Source: an uncultured Phenylobacterium sp.
Lineage (GTDB): Bacteria > Pseudomonadota > Alphaproteobacteria > Caulobacterales > Caulobacteraceae
Direction: 5' to 3'
Assembly (NCBI GenBank): GCA_964575195.1
Contig: CAZNPJ010000005.1
Span: 108,460 to 172,459 of the forward strand
Length of the DNA: 64,000 nucleotides
The notes under the pieces are model-generated. The model did no database searches, was not told where the DNA came from, and worked only from the letters and a program-made list of their open reading frames with translations. A program made the translations under genes and the position numbers. Shown piece by piece: positions 1,185 through 46,118 of this stretch. The first letter of the stretch is position 1. The number at the start of each line of letters is the position of its first letter.

Positions 1185-2768
1185 CTAGCCCGAAACCTTG
1201 ATCGGCAGGAAGGCGGTCCGCCCGTTGCGGTAGACGCCGATCAGCACGCTGTTGCGACCGGCCTTCTTCGCGGCGTCGACGACCGCGGCAAACTCCGCCG
1301 GCGCCGCGACAGGACGGCCGTTGACCAGGGTGATCACGTCACCACGGCGCAGCCCCTTGCTCCCGGCGTCCGAAGACTGGTCGACGCTGTCCACCAGCGC
1401 GCCACGCACCTCAGCGGGAAGGCTGAGCCGGTTACGGGCGGCGTCGTCCAGCGGGCTCAGCGACATGCCCAGCACCGGGGCGCGGGCCGCCGCACCAGCG
1501 CCCGGGACGGCACGACCGCCAGGACCAGCGCCGGAGTTGTCGTTCGCCGCGAGTTCCTTTTCGGAGGGGCGCACGCCGGACCGCACATCCACGAAGCGCT
1601 TCTTGCCGTCGCGGATCACTTCCAGGCGAAGATTTTCACCGGCCCGAACGCGCGCAACCTGCCGCGTCAGATCGGACGAACTCTTCACGGTCGCGCCGTT
1701 CACGGAGATCACGACGTCGCCCACCTGCACGCCCGCACGCTGCGAGGGGCCGCCCGGCGAGAGATCGGCGACAATGGCGCCCTTCTGGCCTTCCAGCCCT
1801 TGCGCTTCGGCCATCTCGGCGGTGAAGTTCTGGATCGTCGCGCCGATGTAGCCGCGCTCGATCTTGCCGCCGTTGATGAGTTGCTTGGTCACCGTCTCGG
1901 CCACGTCGGACGGAATGGCGAAGCCGATGCCGACCGAACCGCCGGACGGCGAGAAGATCGCCGTGTTCACACCGATGACGCGACCGTAGACGTCGAACGT
2001 CGGACCGCCCGAGTTGCCCCGGTTAATCGGCGCGTCGATCTGGATGTAGTCGACGAACGTCTCGCCGATGTCACGACCATAGGCCGAAACGATGCCGGCC
2101 GTGGCGGTGCCGCCCAGACCGAAGGGGTTGCCGACGGTGATCACCCAATCGCCGACGCGCGGCTTGCCGGCGTTTTCGAAGTTCACGAACGGGAACGGAC
2201 CGCCGCGCCCCTTCACCTTGATCACTGCAAGGTCGGTAGCCTCGTCGCGGCCCACGACCTCGGCGTCCAGCTCGGTCTCGTCCTTCAGGACGACCTTGAT
2301 GGTCTCGGCGTTCTCGACGACGTGGTTGTTGGTGACGATGTAACCGTCGGCCGAAATGAAGAAGCCGGACCCGGAAGACTGTTGAGTCGGCAGGCGCGGT
2401 TGACCGCGCTCGGTGCGACCGCCCTGGTCGCCGGCGCCGTCATCGCCATCGTCACCGCCGCCGCCGCCGCGCGGACCCGGCAGCGCAAAGGGCAGGCCGG
2501 GGATCTGTCGGAGCGCGGAGGTATCGACGCGGCTGGTCACATTGATCGACACCACGGCCGGCGAGACGCGATCGAAGATGTCGGCGAACGACATCGGCGC
2601 GCCAGGCGGCGGCGCGAAGATCGGCGTCGTCGAGGCCTTGATCAGTCCGCCGTTGGGGAGCTGCGCATGCGCGGAGGGTAGCTGCATGCCTGCGCCCGCG
2701 ACCGCCGCGGCCATGACACCGGCGCCCGCGACGGCGCCCAGGAGGTAACCGGTCTTCTTGGAAGTCAT
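1185..2768 (-). CDS. degP: Do/DegP (HtrA) periplasmic serine protease with two PDZ domains
   Basis: Signal-like N-terminus; TNNHVV (His), DLAVIK (Asp), NRGNSGGP (Ser); two PDZ regions. Confidence 0.93.
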   Translation of the reverse strand: MTSKKTGYLLGAVAGAGVMAAAVAGAGMQLPSAHAQLPNGGLIKASTTPIFAPPPGAPMSFADIFDRVSPAVVSINVTSRVDTSALRQIPGLPFALPGPRGGGGGDDGDDGAGDQGGRTERGQPRLPTQQSSGSGFFISADGYIVTNNHVVENAETIKVVLKDETELDAEVVGRDEATDLAVIKVKGRGGPFPFVNFENAGKPRVGDWVITVGNPFGLGGTATAGIVSAYGRDIGETFVDYIQIDAPINRGNSGGPTFDVYGRVIGVNTAIFSPSGGSVGIGFAIPSDVAETVTKQLINGGKIERGYIGATIQNFTAEMAEAQGLEGQKGAIVADLSPGGPSQRAGVQVGDVVISVNGATVKSSSDLTRQVARVRAGENLRLEVIRDGKKRFVDVRSGVRPSEKELAANDNSGAGPGGRAVPGAGAAARAPVLGMSLSPLDDAARNRLSLPAEVRGALVDSVDQSSDAGSKGLRRGDVITLVNGRPVAAPAEFAAVVDAAKKAGRNSVLIGVYRNGRTAFLPIKVSG

Positions 2769-2900
2769 CAGCCTTCGTTTCCCTGCGCGCTGTCCGTTGA
2801 GGAGGAGGACGCGCCCAAACTATCTAGGTGGCATGCACCGAACCGCAACGCACCTTCAACTTACGCTTATGTCACCCTAGGCGCGGCTTCACGTCCAATA

Positions 2901-3368
2901 TTAGGCGGGATCGTGGCCCGATTTCTCGCCACCAGCCAACCGACGAAGCCGTTCGGATTCCGCAGGGGTCAATTCCACCTCGGGCGTACGGTTCCGCATG
3001 CGCCCCCACAGCAGGGCGACGCCGGCGAGCACCACGAGAAATGGGGCGGCCCAAAGCACGAGGTTTCCGACTGAGAAGCGCGGAGTCAGCAGCACGAACT
3101 CGCCATATCGATCCGTGAGGAAGCGCTTGACCTCGGGCGCGCTTTTGCCGGCCTTCACCTGCTCTCGGACGATCTGGCGAAGATCGTGGGCCAGTTCGGC
3201 CTCGCTATCGTCGATGGACTCGTTCTGACAAACCAGGCAGCGGACATCGCGGAAGATCTCGCGCGCCTGCGCCTCCTGCGCCGGGTCTTGCAGCCGCTCG
3301 GCCGGATCGGACGCGGCCGCGATGCACGCTACCCCGGCCAGAGCCGCCAGGACCAGCCGCGCCTTCAC
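2901..3368 (-). CDS. ccmH: Cytochrome c biogenesis protein CcmH/CycL
   Basis: RCLVCQNESI motif, YGEFVLL, C-terminal TM; probable GTG start at 3368 overlaps the ccmF stop. Confidence 0.92.
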   Translation of the reverse strand: MKARLVLAALAGVACIAAASDPAERLQDPAQEAQAREIFRDVRCLVCQNESIDDSEAELAHDLRQIVREQVKAGKSAPEVKRFLTDRYGEFVLLTPRFSVGNLVLWAAPFLVVLAGVALLWGRMRNRTPEVELTPAESERLRRLAGGEKSGHDPA

Positions 3369-5329
3369 GCCGCCGTCTCCCGACGCCGGCCGACGCCCAG
3401 GCGCAGGCGTCTGTCGGAGAGCGAGATCAGCCCGCCCAGCGCCATGATCACCGGCCCCAGGAAGATCAGGCTGGCCCAGGGGTTCCAATAGGCGCGCACC
3501 AGGTAGGTCCCCCCGTCACGATGCTCGCCCAGCACGATGTAGATATGTGAGGCCCCGCGGTAACAGAGCCCGACTTCCGACGTCGTCTGGCCGCCCGTCG
3601 TATAGGTCCGACGCTCCGGCGCGATCGTGCAGATCGGCTGGCGGTCCCGCGTGACGGTGATCTGGCCCCGGTCGGCGTCGTAGTTCGGACCCGCAACCAG
3701 GTTCACCGCATCGAGGGTGACATGATAGGCGCCGACGTCCAGGCTGCCCCCCACGGGCAGAGCCTCGGCGGCCTCGACCTTCCAGGTGGTTTCGAACACC
3801 GCGCCCAGCACGAACACGCCCAGACCCAGATGGGCGAAGGTCATCCCCCAGGCGCCCCGCGGCAGGCCGGTGAGACGACGCCAGGTTTCGGCCGCCGGGA
3901 CACGGAAGGCGCGGGTGCGTTCGACGATCTCGGCGCAGGCCCCGGCGATCAGCCAGGCGCCCAGGGCCACGCCCAGGATGCCGAACACCTTCTTCGGCGC
4001 GGCCAGCGCCAGCGCCAGCAGGCCGGAACCCGCGGCGATCAGCAGTGCGACCCAGAGGCGCTGGACCACGCCGCGGGCGTCGCCGCGTTTCCAGGCCAGC
4101 AGCGGCCCCGCCGGCAGCAACACAAGCAGCGCCACCATCAGCGGCGTGAAGGTCAGGTTGAAGTAGGGCGGGCCTACCGAGATCGCCTCGCCAGTCATCG
4201 CCTCCCGGATCAGCGGATAGAGCGTGCCCAGCAGCACTGTCGCCGTGGAGGCGGCGAGCAGGATGTTGTTCATCACCAGCGCGCTTTCACGGCTGATGGG
4301 CGCGAACATGCCGCCCTTGGCCAACGTCGGCGCGCGCCACGCGAACAGCGTAAAGCCCAGCCCCGATGTCACCCCCAGGATGATCAGCAGCAAGACGCCA
4401 CGCGTGGGGTCCACGGCGAAGGCGTGAACCGACGTGAGCACACCCGAGCGCACCAGGAACGCGCCCAACATGGAGAAGCTGAACGCCGCCAGGGCCAGGA
4501 ACACCGTCCAGCCGGTAAGCGCGCCGCGCTTTTCGGTGACGACGGCCGAGTGCAGCAGGGCGGTGGCGATCAGCCACGGCATGAAGCTGGCGTTCTCCAC
4601 CGGGTCCCAGAACCACCAACCGCCCCAGCCCAGCTCGTAGTAGGCCCAGAAGGCGCCCAGGGTGATGCCGACCGTCAGCAGGCTCCAAGCCGCCAGGGCC
4701 CAAGGCCGCACCCAGCGTGACCAGGCCGCGTCGATCCGCCCCTCCACGAGGGCGGCCACCGCCAGGGAGAAGATCACCGACATGCCGACATAGCCCGCGT
4801 AGAGGAACGGCGGGTGGACGGCCAGGGCCGGGTCCTGAAGCAGGGGGTTGAGCGATCGCCCCTCGGCCGGCGGGGTCAGAAGCCGCGCAAGCGGGTTGGA
4901 CGCGAAGACGGTGTAGGCCAGGAACACGGTCCCCAGCAGGCCCTGCGTCGCCACCGTCATGGCCCGCAGCCCTCGCGGCAGGTCGCGGCCCAGACCGGCG
5001 ACCGCGGCGCCAAAGCCCGTCAGCGCCAGGCACCACAGCAGCATGGAGCCCTCGTGGCTGCCCCAGGTTCCGGCGACGCGATAGAGCAGCGGCTTCGCCG
5101 AGTGGGAGTTCTGGGCGACGTTCGCCACCGAGAAATCCGAGACGACGAAGGCGTGCATCAGGGCGGCGAACGCGACCGCCACGGACAGGAACGCCCCCAA
5201 GGCCGCGCCCTCGCCCGCCCCGGCCAGCGGACCGGACCGTCGGACCCGCCCGGCAAGGGACAGGACGACCTGGCCGACGGAAAGCGCCAGCGCCAGGGTC
5301 AGCGCAAAGGCGCCGGCTTCAGCGATCAT
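3365..5329 (-). CDS. ccmF: Heme lyase CcmF
   Basis: WGGWWFWDPVENASFMPW motif, HPPFLY, many TM helices. Confidence 0.97.
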   Translation of the reverse strand: MIAEAGAFALTLALALSVGQVVLSLAGRVRRSGPLAGAGEGAALGAFLSVAVAFAALMHAFVVSDFSVANVAQNSHSAKPLLYRVAGTWGSHEGSMLLWCLALTGFGAAVAGLGRDLPRGLRAMTVATQGLLGTVFLAYTVFASNPLARLLTPPAEGRSLNPLLQDPALAVHPPFLYAGYVGMSVIFSLAVAALVEGRIDAAWSRWVRPWALAAWSLLTVGITLGAFWAYYELGWGGWWFWDPVENASFMPWLIATALLHSAVVTEKRGALTGWTVFLALAAFSFSMLGAFLVRSGVLTSVHAFAVDPTRGVLLLIILGVTSGLGFTLFAWRAPTLAKGGMFAPISRESALVMNNILLAASTATVLLGTLYPLIREAMTGEAISVGPPYFNLTFTPLMVALLVLLPAGPLLAWKRGDARGVVQRLWVALLIAAGSGLLALALAAPKKVFGILGVALGAWLIAGACAEIVERTRAFRVPAAETWRRLTGLPRGAWGMTFAHLGLGVFVLGAVFETTWKVEAAEALPVGGSLDVGAYHVTLDAVNLVAGPNYDADRGQITVTRDRQPICTIAPERRTYTTGGQTTSEVGLCYRGASHIYIVLGEHRDGGTYLVRAYWNPWASLIFLGPVIMALGGLISLSDRRLRLGVGRRRETAA

Positions 5330-41728: not shown

Positions 41729-42424
41729 TCAGGCCGCCAGCCGTTCGGACTTGGCGTCGCGCAGCATGTAGCCGCCGCCCCAGACGGTCTCGATCTGGCT
41801 GTCGCCACCCGCCGCCGCCGCGATCTTCTTCCGCAGCTTGCAGATGAAAACGTCGATGATCTTGATCTCGGGCTCGCTTAGGCCGTTGTAGAGGTGGTTG
41901 AGGCAGGCCTCTTTGGTGAGGACCGTGTTCTTCCGCAGAGAGAGCAGCTCCAGCATCTTGTACTCGCTGGGCGTCAGGTGGATCTGTTTGCCGGCCACCT
42001 CGACCGTTCGGGTGTTGAGGTTGAGCGCGATCTGGCCCGTGCGCAGGATCGACTCGACGTGCCCGCGCGAGCGCCGCACCACCGCCGTGATCCGCGCGCC
42101 CAGCTCGGACTTGTGGAACGGCTTGGTCACATAGTCGTCGGCGCCGGCCGCCAGGGCCGCAACCTTGGTCTCCACGTCGGTCGTGCCCGACAGAATGATC
42201 ACCGGCGTCGGGTTCTTACGCAGCCGAAGTTCCCGCAGCGCCTCGACCCCGCTGATGTCCTCGAGGTCCAGGTCCATCAGGATCGCGTCGTATTCGTAGA
42301 TCTCGGCCAGCTCGATGGACTCCTCGCCCGACGCTGTCATCGAGACATTATGGCCCTCGGCGCCCAGGATCAGCTTCACGCTGCGGGCGGTCGCGTCGTT
42401 ATCTTCCACAAGCAGAATATGCAT
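41729..42424 (-). CDS. Divergent CtrA-family response regulator
   Basis: 231 aa; YKMLELLSLRK, LNHLY, EPEIKIIDVFICKLRKK, IETVWG; receiver domain clearly diverged from canonical CtrA as recalled. Confidence 0.9.
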   Translation of the reverse strand: MHILLVEDNDATARSVKLILGAEGHNVSMTASGEESIELAEIYEYDAILMDLDLEDISGVEALRELRLRKNPTPVIILSGTTDVETKVAALAAGADDYVTKPFHKSELGARITAVVRRSRGHVESILRTGQIALNLNTRTVEVAGKQIHLTPSEYKMLELLSLRKNTVLTKEACLNHLYNGLSEPEIKIIDVFICKLRKKIAAAAGGDSQIETVWGGGYMLRDAKSERLAA

Positions 42425-42435
42425 CGGATCTTCCC

Positions 42436-42849
42436 CTAACGATCGGTCGTATTGATGGCGGTTTCGGTGGTCGCGGGTGCGTCAGAGATGACCGCTTGGG
42501 ACATCTTCATCAGCTCGGACATACGGAAGGGCTTGGCCAGCACCTGGTCGGCGCCGAGGTGGCGGGCCCAGCTCAGATAGTCAGCGCCGCGGGCGCGGCC
42601 CGCGCCGGAGATGGCGATCACCTTGGGCGGCCGAGCGCCCTGCTTAATCGCGCGGATGCAGCCGATGCCCTCGATGTCGGGCATGACGATGTCGGTCACC
42701 ACGAGGTCGGGCTTGTAGGCGCCGGCCATGCGCAGCCCGGAGCGGCCGTTGTCGGCGGCGGCGGTCTGATAGCCCGCCGCTTCGAACGCCATCGACATCA
42801 GGCGCAACAGCGCCGCGTCGTCGTCGATAATCAGAACTCTACCACCCAT
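42436..42849 (-). CDS. Single-domain response regulator (receiver only)
   Basis: IIDDD, TDIVMP, AISG, AKPF; start re-picked at ATG 42849. Confidence 0.9.
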   Translation of the reverse strand: MGGRVLIIDDDAALLRLMSMAFEAAGYQTAAADNGRSGLRMAGAYKPDLVVTDIVMPDIEGIGCIRAIKQGARPPKVIAISGAGRARGADYLSWARHLGADQVLAKPFRMSELMKMSQAVISDAPATTETAINTTDR

Positions 42850-42956
42850 GGTCGTCCCCAACCGTCGAGGACCGCCCTCGAACCGACGCCCCAGCCCCCG
42901 GGGTGCGCGCGCTTCTGAGGAGTGTCCCGAGGTCATCCGTGGCCCGTCTTTCGTCG

Positions 42957-42974: not shown

Positions 42975-43128
42975 GAGTAAGAACCACAGTGATTCGGGGC
43001 GTGGAAACCTGGGACGATTGCTTAGGTAGAGTCCCCGAGTGACGGGGTGTCGCAGCATCGTGGGGTTGTCTGATCCGGGCAGCTCTGCCTTGGCGGCCTG
43101 GAGAAGGCCGGCGCAGGACGACGAACCG

Positions 43129-43172
43129 TGGCTGGGGAACTAGGACTCGAACCTAGAATGACGGTACCAAAA
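43129..43172 (-). mobile_element. Prophage att site: 3' half of tRNA-Gln(UUG), from anticodon loop to CCA
   Basis: Minus strand TTTTGGT ACCGT CATT CTAGG TTCGAGT CCTAG TTCCCCA GCCA; the upstream bases (ACCGA) cannot pair with ACCGT, so the 5' half is absent. Confidence 0.88.
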
Positions 43173-43306: not shown

Positions 43307-43657
43307 GTGACGAGCGCCCGCGTCGGCGACCGCCCGCCCCTCACCCTCGCCCAGCTCCGCGCCGAGGTGGAGCGATGGCCCGCCGAGCGCGGGCTCTATC
43401 GCCTGTGCCATGACGCCCCACCCCTGGACCCGCGCCGGCCGCCGGCCAACCTGCGATGGCTGCTGTTCAGCTCGCACTACGTCGCGACCGCCGGCGCCTA
43501 TGCCCTGGGCGCGGCCGGCGCGCCGCTTCCCGAGGGCGAGCATCATTTCATTTGGCGGGCGGCTTGGCTGGCGGGTCTGGACGCTACGGCCGCCCACAAC
43601 CTGACCTCCGATTCGGGCTCACGGCCGCCAGAGCGGAACAATGCGCGAATTTCCTGA
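43307..43657 (+). CDS. Prophage hypothetical protein
   Basis: 116-aa ORF next to att; no motif recognised. Confidence 0.5.
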   Translation: MTSARVGDRPPLTLAQLRAEVERWPAERGLYRLCHDAPPLDPRRPPANLRWLLFSSHYVATAGAYALGAAGAPLPEGEHHFIWRAAWLAGLDATAAHNLTSDSGSRPPERNNARIS

Positions 43658-43785: not shown

Positions 43786-43917
43786 ATGCCTGATCGTAAG
43801 CAGGTCCAACACCGCGACTCCAAGACCGGTCACTTCATCACGAAACGCGAAGCTGACCGTCGCCCTGCTCAATCCGAGCGCGAGGTGATTAGACACCCCG
43901 CGCCCAAGAAGAAGTAA
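43786..43917 (+). CDS. 43-aa basic small protein (accessory gene)
   Basis: TAAGGAG RBS; MPDRKQVQHRDSKTGHFITKREADRRPAQSEREVIRHPAPKKK; below the ORF-track cutoff. Confidence 0.75.
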   Translation: MPDRKQVQHRDSKTGHFITKREADRRPAQSEREVIRHPAPKKK

Positions 43918-44065
43918 GGCCTCCGGTCTTTCCTTAAGGGGTGAGGGCGACCCAGACGCCGGCCAGCTGACAGGCCGTCCTCCCCCCGCTTTTCGAGCCA
44001 GAGGCACCCGACGACTATATGCGCGCCGCCGCCGCGGGCAACGCGCGCATAAGGGGAACGCCGAA

Positions 44066-44091
44066 GAACTAGAACGGAACATCTTGAGAAC
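44066..44091 (+). promoter_or_regulatory. Tandem alphaproteobacterial LexA (SOS) boxes
   Basis: GAAC-tagaacg-GAAC-atcttga-GAAC, i.e. two chained GAAC-N7-GAAC boxes, 27 bp upstream of ATG 44119. Confidence 0.85.
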
Positions 44092-44118
44092 ATTGCACGG
44101 CCACGCTAGGGGTTCGGC

Positions 44119-44295
44119 ATGCTCGATGCGCCCGCCCAGACCTCGCACGCCGACGCCAGCACGGCCAACGACAACGCCCCGCCGTCTGCCTGGATGATCC
44201 CCATCGTCGGCCAGGTCGGCGACGGCGGCCGGGTCAGGCTCAACGCCGCCTGGGCCGCCGCCACGCCCTTCCCCAACGATCACCGCGAGGCGTGA
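44119..44295 (+). CDS. 58-aa small protein downstream of the SOS boxes
   Basis: MLDAPAQTSHADASTANDNAPPSAWMIPIVGQVGDGGRVRLNAAWAAATPFPNDHREA; TGA is 1 bp before the next ATG. Confidence 0.65.
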   Translation: MLDAPAQTSHADASTANDNAPPSAWMIPIVGQVGDGGRVRLNAAWAAATPFPNDHREA

Positions 44296-44296
44296 C

Positions 44297-44557
44297 ATGG
44301 GAACGCGCAAGGGGCCGATCTACTGGATGACGTGGCAGAAAACCCTTGGCGGCATGGCCGACGCCGGCGTCCGCGTCCGCCAGCGGTGCGAGGCCTGCGA
44401 CGTGTCGGCCGACATCGACGTCGGCGAATGGCTGGCGTTCTACGGCCCCGACCATAGCTTGGTGAATTTCCGCCCGCCCTGCGACACCTGCGGCGTGCCG
44501 ACCTGGTTCTCCGCCTCGCCAGGGCCGTCGACACCATTCCGTCCGCTGAAGGACTGA
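44297..44557 (+). CDS. Small zinc-ribbon-like protein
   Basis: TLGGMADAGVRVRQRCEAC...RPPCDTCG (CxxC...CxxC). Confidence 0.8.
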   Translation: MGTRKGPIYWMTWQKTLGGMADAGVRVRQRCEACDVSADIDVGEWLAFYGPDHSLVNFRPPCDTCGVPTWFSASPGPSTPFRPLKD

Positions 44558-44571
44558 CACGCGGCCGAACG

Positions 44572-44602
44572 AAAAAGCCCCCGACGCGTGAGCGCCAGGG
44601 GC
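44572..44602 (-). terminator. Rho-independent terminator ending the phage late operon
   Basis: Minus strand gcccctggcgc-tcac-gcgtcgggggc-ttttt. Confidence 0.75.
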
Positions 44603-44652
44603 CTGTGAGCGGTCATCGCCGCGGGGGATGATGCGTCAGCCCGCCGGCGTGG

Positions 44653-44991
44653 TCAGCCGACGCAGATCTTGCCGCGCGGGTTGTCTTCGCCGCATCGCTT
44701 GCAGCGCAGGGTATGGATCTCTCCGTTTGGCGCCTTAATCTCGCGCGGGCACTCGGCCTCACCCGGCATCCAGAAGTCATGCTTCAGTGGGCCACCCAAG
44801 CCGATCAAGGCGCGGCCCAGCAGGGCGATGGCCTCGGCCATAGGCACCTCGTAACTGGTGGTCAGCGGGTCATCCCCCTCGCTTCGGATCGTGAAGCGCA
44901 CGCGCTCGCCACAGTCGGTCGCTTGCATGTTCACGTAACCGACGTGACCCTTGTCGGGCATCGGGCCGGTGTAGGCGTATTGGTCGCTCAT
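44653..44991 (-). CDS. Prophage hypothetical protein after the spanins
   Basis: ATG 44991 with a GGAGA RBS; C-terminal Cys cluster (C...HTLRCKRC...C). Confidence 0.7.
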   Translation of the reverse strand: MSDQYAYTGPMPDKGHVGYVNMQATDCGERVRFTIRSEGDDPLTTSYEVPMAEAIALLGRALIGLGGPLKHDFWMPGEAECPREIKAPNGEIHTLRCKRCGEDNPRGKICVG

Positions 44992-45029: not shown

Positions 45030-45329
45030 TCAGTGACAGGCCTGTCGTCGGGCGAGGTCCGCCCGCTCCCATCCTCGCCGCCCCCAGGCGCGGGCCTCCG
45101 CCTCGCCATTCAGGAACGCCTCGGTCTCCGCGCGCTCGCGATCGGTCGCCGGCTGGACGATGCCGCCCTGGACCGGCGGCTCGGCCTCGATCCGCGCGCA
45201 GAGGCGGGGGTCGGCGGCTTTCGGCGCCGGTTCAGCGACCGGGGCCGGCCTGGAGCGCGTCGCGCAGGCGCTCAGCGCCAACGACGCCACGAACAGGACA
45301 GCCAGCGGCGTCCGCTTTGACGGGTGCAT
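45030..45329 (-). CDS. o-spanin (Rz1-like lipoprotein)
   Basis: Lipobox LSAC, Pro-rich segment, overlaps the 3' end of the upstream TM protein. Confidence 0.8.
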   Translation of the reverse strand: MHPSKRTPLAVLFVASLALSACATRSRPAPVAEPAPKAADPRLCARIEAEPPVQGGIVQPATDRERAETEAFLNGEAEARAWGRRGWERADLARRQACH

Positions 45330-45639
45330 AGGCGATCTCCCTTATGACCTTGGCCGAGGCGCGGGCCTGCTTTACCCGCACGTCGCATTGCAGGGCGGTA
45401 TCGTTGACGGCGGTGCGCGCCTGGACGTTCTCTTCGCCCCGGAGGCGTTCGGCCTTGCGGAAACCGGCTTCCCACCCGCGGGCCGCATCCTTCCAATCGT
45501 CGGCCGCCACGCGCCAGGCGTCGCGGTCCTGCCCGATCCGGTGAAGCTGGGCGCCGTAGCCGATGACCGGCGTGACGTGGGCGATGGCGATGACCAGGCT
45601 GGCCGCCACCGCATAGGCGATCAGGCGAAGGGTGATCAT
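45232..45639 (-). CDS. i-spanin (Rz-like)
   Basis: N-terminal TM (MITLRLIAYAVAASLVIAIA) then coiled coil; ATG overlaps the endolysin stop. Confidence 0.75.
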   Translation of the reverse strand: MITLRLIAYAVAASLVIAIAHVTPVIGYGAQLHRIGQDRDAWRVAADDWKDAARGWEAGFRKAERLRGEENVQARTAVNDTALQCDVRVKQARASAKVIREIAYAPVKADAAGCPVRGVVGAERLRDALQAGPGR

Positions 45640-46118
45640 AGGCCGCGCTCGCACAGGGTCCGCTCGGCCGCCCGGCGGCGCACCAGGCCCGCCATCTCCC
45701 GCCCGCCGGCCTTCGTCCAACGCGACAGCTCAGCACACGCGCCGCGGAGATCGCCTGCCAGCGCCTTGCGCGACAGGGTCGATTTGCAGAAGGCCCCGGT
45801 CCCGACGTTGAAGCCGAACGACGTGAAGGCAGCCCGCGTCTCGATGGGCAGGTCCGCCGGCAGGCAAGGGGCGATCTCCAGCCCGTGCTTCACCGCGTCG
45901 GCGGCCAGCATGTTCGCGCACTCCTGTTCGGTGTAGCGCCGGCCGATGACGATGCCCGCCGTCGCGCCGTAGCAGGCCGTCGGCAGCTTCACGCCCAGCG
46001 CCGGGTCGGGATAGCCCACGGGCACGAAGCCCTCGAAGTCGGCGATCAGCGGGACAGCCAGGGCGCCGGCCGCCATGACAGCGGCCACGCCGGCGGCGAT
46101 GCTCTTGCCCTTGCTCAT
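45636..46118 (-). CDS. SAR endolysin (GH24 lysozyme)
   Basis: Lys-rich start, Ala/Gly-rich SAR segment, FEG-x7-D, TACYG, FNVGTGAFCKSTL, GLVRRRAAE. Confidence 0.92.
   Translation of the reverse strand: MSKGKSIAAGVAAVMAAGALAVPLIADFEGFVPVGYPDPALGVKLPTACYGATAGIVIGRRYTEQECANMLAADAVKHGLEIAPCLPADLPIETRAAFTSFGFNVGTGAFCKSTLSRKALAGDLRGACAELSRWTKAGGREMAGLVRRRAAERTLCERGL

Follow-up and report, generated by a model that had tools for sequence, protein, structure and literature searches.

Is the small two-gene operon at the end of a prophage in an uncultured Phenylobacterium sp. governed by the LexA repressor of its host, and what might its products do? The DNA in question is a stretch of 64,000 nucleotides from contig CAZNPJ010000005.1 (assembly GCA_964575195.1), referred to here as the window, in which an earlier note had drawn attention to regularly spaced GAAC tetramers ahead of two coupled small open reading frames (ORFs). 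It had proposed a DNA-damage-triggered phage module separate from the immunity region, acting as an induction switch, an SOS modulator or a toxic pair. The two ORFs, here called ORF-A and ORF-B, are preceded by a high-scoring predicted LexA operator that is conserved upstream of ORF-B homologues at other loci. We lean towards reading them as prophage cargo: an operon repressed by LexA and inducible by DNA damage, carried by a siphovirus-like prophage of a Caulobacteraceae-type host, with a part in DNA-damage handling.

The predicted LexA operator

Three GAAC tetramers, starting at positions 44066, 44077 and 44088 on the plus strand and separated in each pair by 7 nt, are present just as the earlier note described them. 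With additional GAACs at 44056 and 44072 they form the densest GAAC cluster of the window, five GAACs per 40 bp at 44056-44091 (GGGGAACGCCGAAGAACTAGAACGGAACATCTTGAGAAC). Candidate sites were scored with a position weight matrix (PWM) derived from 32 Caulobacter crescentus boxes of SOS promoters, tabulated with LexA chromatin immunoprecipitation sequencing peak heights in a study that confirmed GTTC-N7-GTTC as the Caulobacter LexA motif (PMC12700426). The training boxes themselves score from 14.7 to 26.3 bits, with a median of 20.3 bits. By this matrix, the host's own LexA lying outside the window, the box at 44077-44091 scores at about the training median, and no other strong LexA site is present in the part of the prophage that the window covers; the runner-up in the 64 kb reaches 14.0 bits, some 6 bits lower. 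It is a single spacer base away from two boxes of C. crescentus, those of CCNA_01141 (GTTCGCAAGATGTTC) and CCNA_02004 (GTTCACAAGATGTTC). Its end lies 28 nt from the ATG of ORF-A, genuine C. crescentus boxes being found roughly -133 to 107 nt from the coding sequence. The assignment of 44077-44091 as a high-scoring operator of the alphaproteobacterial LexA type is thus supported by its score, the best in the window, and by its conservation with different spacers at other loci.

The second box in the cluster, at 44066-44080, overlaps the first and has the middle GAAC in common with it. Its score is marginal, just below the training minimum, and it is specific to the window. Related loci carry one box only, so that the GAAC triple is a peculiarity of this copy.

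Conservation of the operator in the ORF-B family

Close relatives of ORF-B are scarce. When 1.84 billion representative sequences were searched with a profile, a family of 231 proteins was recovered at E<=1e-3, and a second search gave 95 proteins, all unnamed or 'hypothetical', those with organism names coming from Phenylobacterium. The sole genome match for ORF-B is a Caulobacteraceae metagenome-assembled genome (MAG), and no C. crescentus homologue was seen among the named matches. Deposited phage genomes yielded no homologue and IMG/VR a single one, on a contig identical to that of locus L018 described below. The family has a short form of about 80-130 residues and a long form of about 185 residues with a conserved C-terminal extension.

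The window was compared with 13 further independent loci that encode ORF-B homologues. Co-occurrence of box and ORFs in other prophages, which the earlier note had named beforehand as a check, is found: nine of the 14 loci (the window, L001, L005, L008, L009, L010, L011, L012 and L017) carry a perfect GAAC/GTTC-N7 box in the 100 nt that precede the operon, and among these nine ORF-B identity is only 42-69%. Two more loci have a box with one mismatch (L016, 17.2 bits; L019, 11.8 bits), and L014, L018 and L020 have none. Across the box-bearing loci the tetramers are retained and the spacers are all different. With a background density of 4.4e-5 boxes per bp, taken from the same sequences, the binomial probability of nine in 14 is 1.3e-18. 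In most loci the upstream box is the sole such box, or the top PWM match, within up to 16 kb.

These figures bear on whether the repeats are fortuitous, or the site of some other factor, so that the operon would not be LexA-controlled. The bare 15-mer GAAC-N7-GAAC does occur five times in the window against 1.5 expected, a count matched by five of 100 shuffles; the exact GAAC triple arose in 10 of 2000 first-order Markov simulations. The main box, however, has a score equal to the median for genuine boxes and higher than any other in the window, and its counterparts have kept their tetramers beside diverged spacers in nine of 14 loci. A fortuitous origin is very improbable on these grounds, and the sequence comparisons make LexA control of the ORF-A/ORF-B operon highly probable.

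Three observations on individual loci may be added. In L009 (2790-2880) and L012 (7890-7975) a common upstream element, GGAACGAAGCGGAAA[A/T]CTCC, lies some 60-70 nt before the LexA box. In L008, from a Caulobacteraceae MAG (2626-3950), ORF-B breaks off after about 80 codons, where what looks like the 3' part of an integrase gene takes over, with a tRNA-Gly(CCC) following at 3990-4064; the truncation is due to a rearrangement or to a chimera in the assembly. A second, distantly related CxxC...CxxC ribbon gene adjoins the ORF-B homologue in L005 (482-751) and L010 (7355-7753), where it is downstream, and in L018 (7534-8001), where it is upstream; clear homology links the copies of L005 and L010.

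Two translationally coupled genes

The stop codon of ORF-A is separated from the ATG of ORF-B by 1 base, and a GAGG lies 6 nt ahead of that ATG. The G+C content at third codon positions (GC3; Table 1) of both ORFs is typical for real genes in this 68% G+C sequence. The ratio of non-synonymous to synonymous substitution rates (dN/dS) is 0.45-0.67 for ORF-A and 0.20-0.66 for ORF-B, the window copy of ORF-B giving 0.32-0.39 against those of L001, L005 and L008. In these three loci the frame, start and stop of ORF-A and its coupling to ORF-B are all preserved. On the evidence of GC3, dN/dS and the conserved stop/start coupling, we conclude from the sequences that both ORFs are coding.

ORF-A is conserved at its N-terminus (ML..NDNAP) and C-terminus (FPN(D/E)xREA), and matched nothing in Pfam, NCBIfam, PHROG or PADLOC. 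It is present in the window, L001, L005 and L008 only, with no homologue beyond these loci. ORF-B has two cysteine pairs, C31-x2-C34 and C62-x2-C65, and a conserved C-terminal tail, ASPGxxTPFxPL. The AlphaFold2 models are confident, with predicted local distance difference test (pLDDT) values of 86.5 and 84.8, and that of ORF-B (86.5) shows a zinc ribbon with an inserted helix and the ASPGxxTPFxPL tail extended. ORF-B has no significant match in Pfam, NCBIfam, PHROG or PADLOC, and none in the PDB by sequence profile or by fold, Foldseek of the models giving no PDB match at E<1; its best viral fold match is one unnamed 87-residue protein (E = 1e-3). When 42 short-form and 47 long-form family members were searched along with the two ORFs against Pfam, PHROGs, NCBIfam and PADLOC, only sub-threshold, generic zinc-ribbon noise was returned.

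The pairing of two small, translationally coupled genes under predicted LexA control would suit an SOS-induced toxin-antitoxin pair, or a growth or division inhibitor of the kind of SulA, SidA or e14 SfiC, and Caulobacter does possess LexA-controlled toxin-antitoxin systems and division inhibitors (PMC12700426, PMC4211646). The pair is not an obligate one, however, since ORF-A is missing from most ORF-B loci (L009-L012, L016, L017 and L019). There is no toxin-antitoxin or defence match in Pfam or PADLOC, and neither ORF has a membrane segment such as that of SidA or DidA. A toxin-antitoxin pair is disfavoured both by the dispensability of ORF-A in most loci and by the lack of a match to any toxin-antitoxin model, and we judge a toxic module of either type, the last of the three functions first proposed, to be decidedly unlikely, less firmly so for ORF-B acting by itself as a division inhibitor.

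Size and the four-cysteine ribbon also recall the small zinc-finger activators of phages, and ORF-B might be a transcription or DNA-binding factor like P2 Ogr that activates nearby cargo or late genes after SOS induction. It adjoins the late operon, and its homologue is usually the first gene of its operon. Yet no match to Ogr/Delta (PF04606) or to a DNA-binding family was found in Pfam at E<=1 for ORF-B or at E<=0.1 for the 42 and 47 family members, the fold has no DNA-binding relative, and ORF-B is convergent with the late operon, not upstream of it. The probability of such a regulator is low, about as low as that of the toxic module.

Promoter and transcript ends

A putative promoter can be read between the main box and ORF-A, its -35-like TTGAGA overlapping the third GAAC. 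We take this to be a promoter from inspection by eye against the Caulobacter sigma-73 consensus. With the -10-like GCTAGGGG, transcription would begin at the ATG of ORF-A or right beside it. In several homologous loci, too, the box overlaps or directly trails identifiable -35 or -10 sequences. A scan for generic sigma-70 promoters gave none on the plus strand, and that candidate was dropped.

Downstream, the ORF-A/ORF-B unit stops 18 nt short of a hairpin with a 13-bp stem, so that the two ORFs run against the late operon and end at its terminator, as had been described. The hairpin has a U-run in the direction of the minus-strand genes and is weaker, without a U-run, on the plus strand; it is kept in L001 along with the cassette. 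Its sequence features make a strong case for an intrinsic terminator of the late operon, and it is likely to be the stop for the ORF-A/ORF-B transcript as well.

The hairpin upstream of the GAAC cluster that the earlier note counted with the module (tatgcgcg(c)...(g)cgcgcata) does exist. It is thermodynamically ordinary for its G+C content, and no counterpart was found in L001 or L008; being neither conserved nor unusual, it was rejected as a component.

Position at the prophage end

The prophage end is marked by an attachment (att)-type core, the 3' part of a tRNA, 0.9-1.4 kb from the cassette, which confirms the placement of the genes at the end of a prophage. ARAGORN and Rfam found no complete tRNA in the window. 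In three of four bioreactor metagenome runs the 47-bp unitig of this core is covered about twice as deeply as the sequence to either side, and the flanking contigs end or begin there in all four. From these data we read the core as one duplicated when the phage integrated into a tRNA gene, the prophage lying to its right, and it is this tRNA fragment, with its doubled depth and contig breaks, that indicates that the cassette is phage-borne.

In three of the four runs the depth on the prophage side also exceeds that on the host side (53.8 and 39.6, 92.4 and 70.9, 23.8 and 19.7; 1.2-1.36 times), which would be expected if some phage DNA were free or replicating, or if another strain carried this prophage too. 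In run X2 an alternative left context (…GGGGATTTTCTGAATGAATT) is joined to the 47-bp core. On the host flank, by the att core, are genes for a CtrA-like OmpR-family response regulator and, immediately upstream of it, a single-domain receiver (41729-42424 and 42436-42936, minus strand).

Table 1. Features of the ORF-A/ORF-B cassette and its surroundings (positions in the window)
Feature	Position	Strand	Description
att-type core	43126-43172	-	3' part of a tRNA (T-arm, acceptor strand, CCA) with no 5' half; left prophage end
Upstream hairpin	44018-44051	+	-22.7 kcal/mol; z = -1.5
Weak upstream LexA-like box	44066-44080	-	Reverse complement GTTCCGTTCTAGTTC; 13.9 bits
Main predicted LexA operator	44077-44091	-	GAACATCTTGAGAAC, reverse complement GTTCTCAAGATGTTC; 20.1 bits
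Putative promoter	44084-44112	+	-35-like TTGAGA at 44084-44089; -10-like GCTAGGGG/TAGGGG at 44105-44112
ORF-A	44119-44295	+	58 residues, small, non-hydrophobic; GC3 0.93
ORF-B	44297-44557	+	86 residues, four-cysteine zinc ribbon; GC3 0.87
Terminator hairpin	44575-44604	-	13-bp stem, U-run; z = -3.0
Late genes	44653 to window end	-	ORF of 112/139 residues; Rz/Rz1-like spanins; endolysin (PF00959); tape measure; tail; head-tail connector (adaptor); major head protein; portal

Two ORFs, 43307-43657 and 43786-43917, lie between the att core and the cassette. The latter encodes 43 residues, very basic (MPDRKQVQHRDSKTGHFITKREADRRPAQSEREVIRHPAPKKK), with a good Shine-Dalgarno sequence (AAGGAG) and no family match, and has its own terminator-like hairpin at 43938-43995, followed by GCTTTTC. 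About 135 nt upstream of it, at the 3' end of a 116-residue ORF, is a near-LexA box (43636-43650, reverse complement ATTCGCGCATTGTTC; 13.1 bits, fourth in rank in the window), followed by two GAATTC-containing repeats (gaccGAATTCcttagtGAATTCagc).

ORF-A and ORF-B converge on the minus-strand late genes; the integrase and immunity region are outside the 64-kb window. The window and L001 share DNA homology from close to the box up to the very stop codon of the last late gene; beyond this stretch, on either side, their sequences are unrelated. The lysis genes differ, a T4-type lysozyme set in the window corresponding to GH108, BubE and DUF1353 in L001. In these otherwise syntenic prophages the last late gene itself encodes a cysteine-rich protein of 112 residues with no family match in the window (44653-44991, minus strand) and BubE (PF20137) in L001 (1631-2005). 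On the 3' side of the endolysin gene, at 45030-45720 (minus strand), two ORFs of 162 and 99 residues, the shorter one embedded in or overlapping the longer and with a lipobox-like N-terminus, look like Rz/Rz1-type spanins; their matches to PHROG and Pfam LysC/Rz models are weak.

The position next to an att site and convergent with lysis genes recurs in L012 (GH108), L016 and L019 (PF11860 muramidase) and L010 (GH19). Serine integrases are directly upstream in L010 and L019, and L009 has an integrase and a tRNA fragment upstream; homologues occur with serine and with tyrosine integrases. A recombination directionality factor, or an excision factor specific to one integrase, was rejected as a function for ORF-B because the family is found with both integrase classes; the prophage end that it occupies is also opposite the likely integrase position.

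Neighbours of the homologues and the role of ORF-B

DNA-repair and recombination genes are frequent neighbours of the ORF-B homologues. SRAP is immediately downstream in one operon in L012 and in the P0193 locus, Ku is beside the homologue in L016 and L019, and an ATP-dependent DNA ligase is near that of L010. The L011 homologue directly follows a PNKP-type HAD gene, that of L001 is divergent from a 3-methyladenine glycosylase gene, and that of L018 belongs to a phage early operon with ERF, YqaJ and a RecA-dependent nuclease. Because its homologues accompany SRAP, Ku, ligase, PNKP, glycosylase and phage recombination genes, a role for ORF-B with damaged DNA or in repair is suggested, and for the same reason an SOS-modulating or DNA-damage-related role fits best of the three functions first proposed. 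That ORF-B is specifically an accessory in the handling of DNA damage or DNA ends is a tentative assignment, which we put forward as possible rather than probable.

Some further neighbours were noted. In L020 (plasmid pSWIT02, 4959-6455) the distant homologue Swit_4941 is followed by a gene for 102 residues and one for a zeta-toxin-like kinase (PF06414), with no LexA box, and imuA- and imuB-like genes lie 3 kb downstream. The SRAP genes of Asticcacaulis and Methylocystis plasmids have no zinc-ribbon neighbour of this kind. Upstream of the SRAP gene on a Bosea plasmid lie small genes that were set aside as a link to the family, as they are not zinc ribbons and have no cysteine pairs.

The same contexts bear on the proposal of an induction switch, by which ORF-B, with ORF-A, would be a LexA-repressed antirepressor like 186 Tum or Gifsy Ant that inactivates a non-cleavable repressor after damage. 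A LexA box before a small phage gene transcribed apart from the late operon is the layout of Tum and Ant (PMC3121763, PMC9437464), and the main box is the sole strong LexA site in the prophage sequence available. ORF-B, however, resembles no antirepressor family in Pfam, PHROGs or NCBIfam, and has no PDB or informative viral fold match. Expression apart from repressor-controlled lytic operons holds for the window and eight other loci and fails for L014 and L018, whose box-less homologues are embedded in phage early operons; an antirepressor in that setting could not start induction, and the trigger reading is weakened accordingly. Homologues are moreover found on integrative islands and on one plasmid as well as with both kinds of integrase, and some are co-transcribed with SRAP. 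We therefore regard ORF-B as less likely to be an induction trigger than a damage-related cargo protein, and the antirepressor proposal as unlikely.

Several results weigh against the cargo-operon reading that we prefer. No repair gene adjoins the cassette in the window, and the adjacency seen in homologues may reflect SOS-regulated cargo collecting at a prophage-end spot. Three of the 14 loci are without any box, and the orientation of the box to the gene varies, its sense-strand tetramers being GAAC in the window, L001 and L008 and GTTC in the other loci. The generic sigma-70 scan reported no plus-strand promoter at the cassette, none of the RNA-seq runs searched contained the locus, and fold searches with the ORF-B model matched nothing informative. 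The cassette is also not set apart by composition, its G+C of 0.69-0.72 across the ORFs being the same as that of the flanks.

Comparison with known systems

As a self-contained unit between att and the end of the late genes, flanked by unrelated genes in different prophages, the cassette resembles a phage moron, as in the 'b-region' cargo of lambdoid phages, which carries its own promoter and terminator. It differs in that its G+C content is not deviant and in its regulation, predicted to be by LexA.

Phage-borne LexA sites are known to control antirepressors, co-repressors or lytic genes (PMC3121763, PMC4551915, PMC9437464). The cassette shares with 186 Tum and the Ant proteins of Salmonella Gifsy and Fels-2 prophages a host LexA operator at a small phage gene outside the immunity operon (PMC3121763), whereas ORF-B has no sequence or fold similarity to them, and its family is also found without boxes, whether in early operons, on islands or on a plasmid, as well as co-transcribed with repair genes. 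In phage GIL01, LexA represses the lytic promoter itself and the phage protein gp7 binds LexA (PMC4551915); ORF-B is likewise a small phage protein in a LexA-centred arrangement, but as a predicted target of LexA. The closest regulatory parallel is with the C. crescentus SOS regulon (PMC12700426, citing da Rocha 2008), which has the same motif, boxes nearly identical to the main box at CCNA_01141 and CCNA_02004, and comparable distances to the coding sequence; CCNA_02004, like the window, has two boxes. The operon differs from that regulon in being prophage-encoded and in that its operator is a prediction.

A likeness of another kind is with ZnR1 and ZnR2, uncharacterised zinc-ribbon families described in alphaproteobacterial ZnR1-ZnR2-SRAP operons beside Ku (Aravind, Anand and Iyer 2013; PMC3765255). 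These too are small four-cysteine ribbons directly upstream of SRAP and near Ku, sometimes in tandem, as in L005, L010 and L018. The likeness is one of context alone, and the context is matched by homologues (L012, the P0193 locus, L016 and L019), not by the window copy. The ZnR1 and ZnR2 examples are chromosomal operons of Bradyrhizobiaceae, whereas the ORF-B cassettes are at Caulobacteraceae prophage ends.

Proposed mechanism and significance

We propose that in the unstressed lysogen host LexA would occupy the main box, possibly aided by the weaker overlapping site. Because the operator overlaps the putative promoter, the operon would be silent independently of the phage repressor. On DNA damage, active RecA would promote LexA self-cleavage, and host RNA polymerase could then transcribe the operon into a short bicistronic, possibly leaderless mRNA that would end at the hairpin held in common with the late operon, ORF-A and ORF-B being translated by coupling. 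Host LexA control would thus have ORF-B made once the SOS response fires. ORF-B would be the effector and ORF-A a lineage-specific accessory partner; ORF-B may bind, protect or recruit, its target being damaged DNA or else a protein of DNA repair or recombination.

A bolder reading is that ORF-B founds a class of mobile-element SOS effectors carried by prophages, islands and plasmids in Caulobacterales and related Alphaproteobacteria, or else is a novel, structurally unrelated LexA-controlled induction trigger. As a member of such a class it might sense or process damage, perhaps as a loader or regulator of SRAP or of Ku-type end repair, or might protect the element as it excises or replicates. 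We consider this rather improbable. The regulatory logic itself is already known; the ORF-B family is unannotated and had previously no link to LexA.

LexA-controlled genes of mobile elements set the response of prophage and host to DNA-damaging stress, antibiotics included, and to our knowledge almost nothing is known of such control in Alphaproteobacteria. What emerges here is a conserved, unannotated zinc-ribbon family with a clear regulatory signature, tied to the SRAP, Ku and ligase cargo of prophage ends. The operator, the gene pair and the orthologous loci are now defined for work in Caulobacter, a tractable model. Should ORF-B prove to have a role in repair or in induction, it would be a new component of the alphaproteobacterial SOS network.

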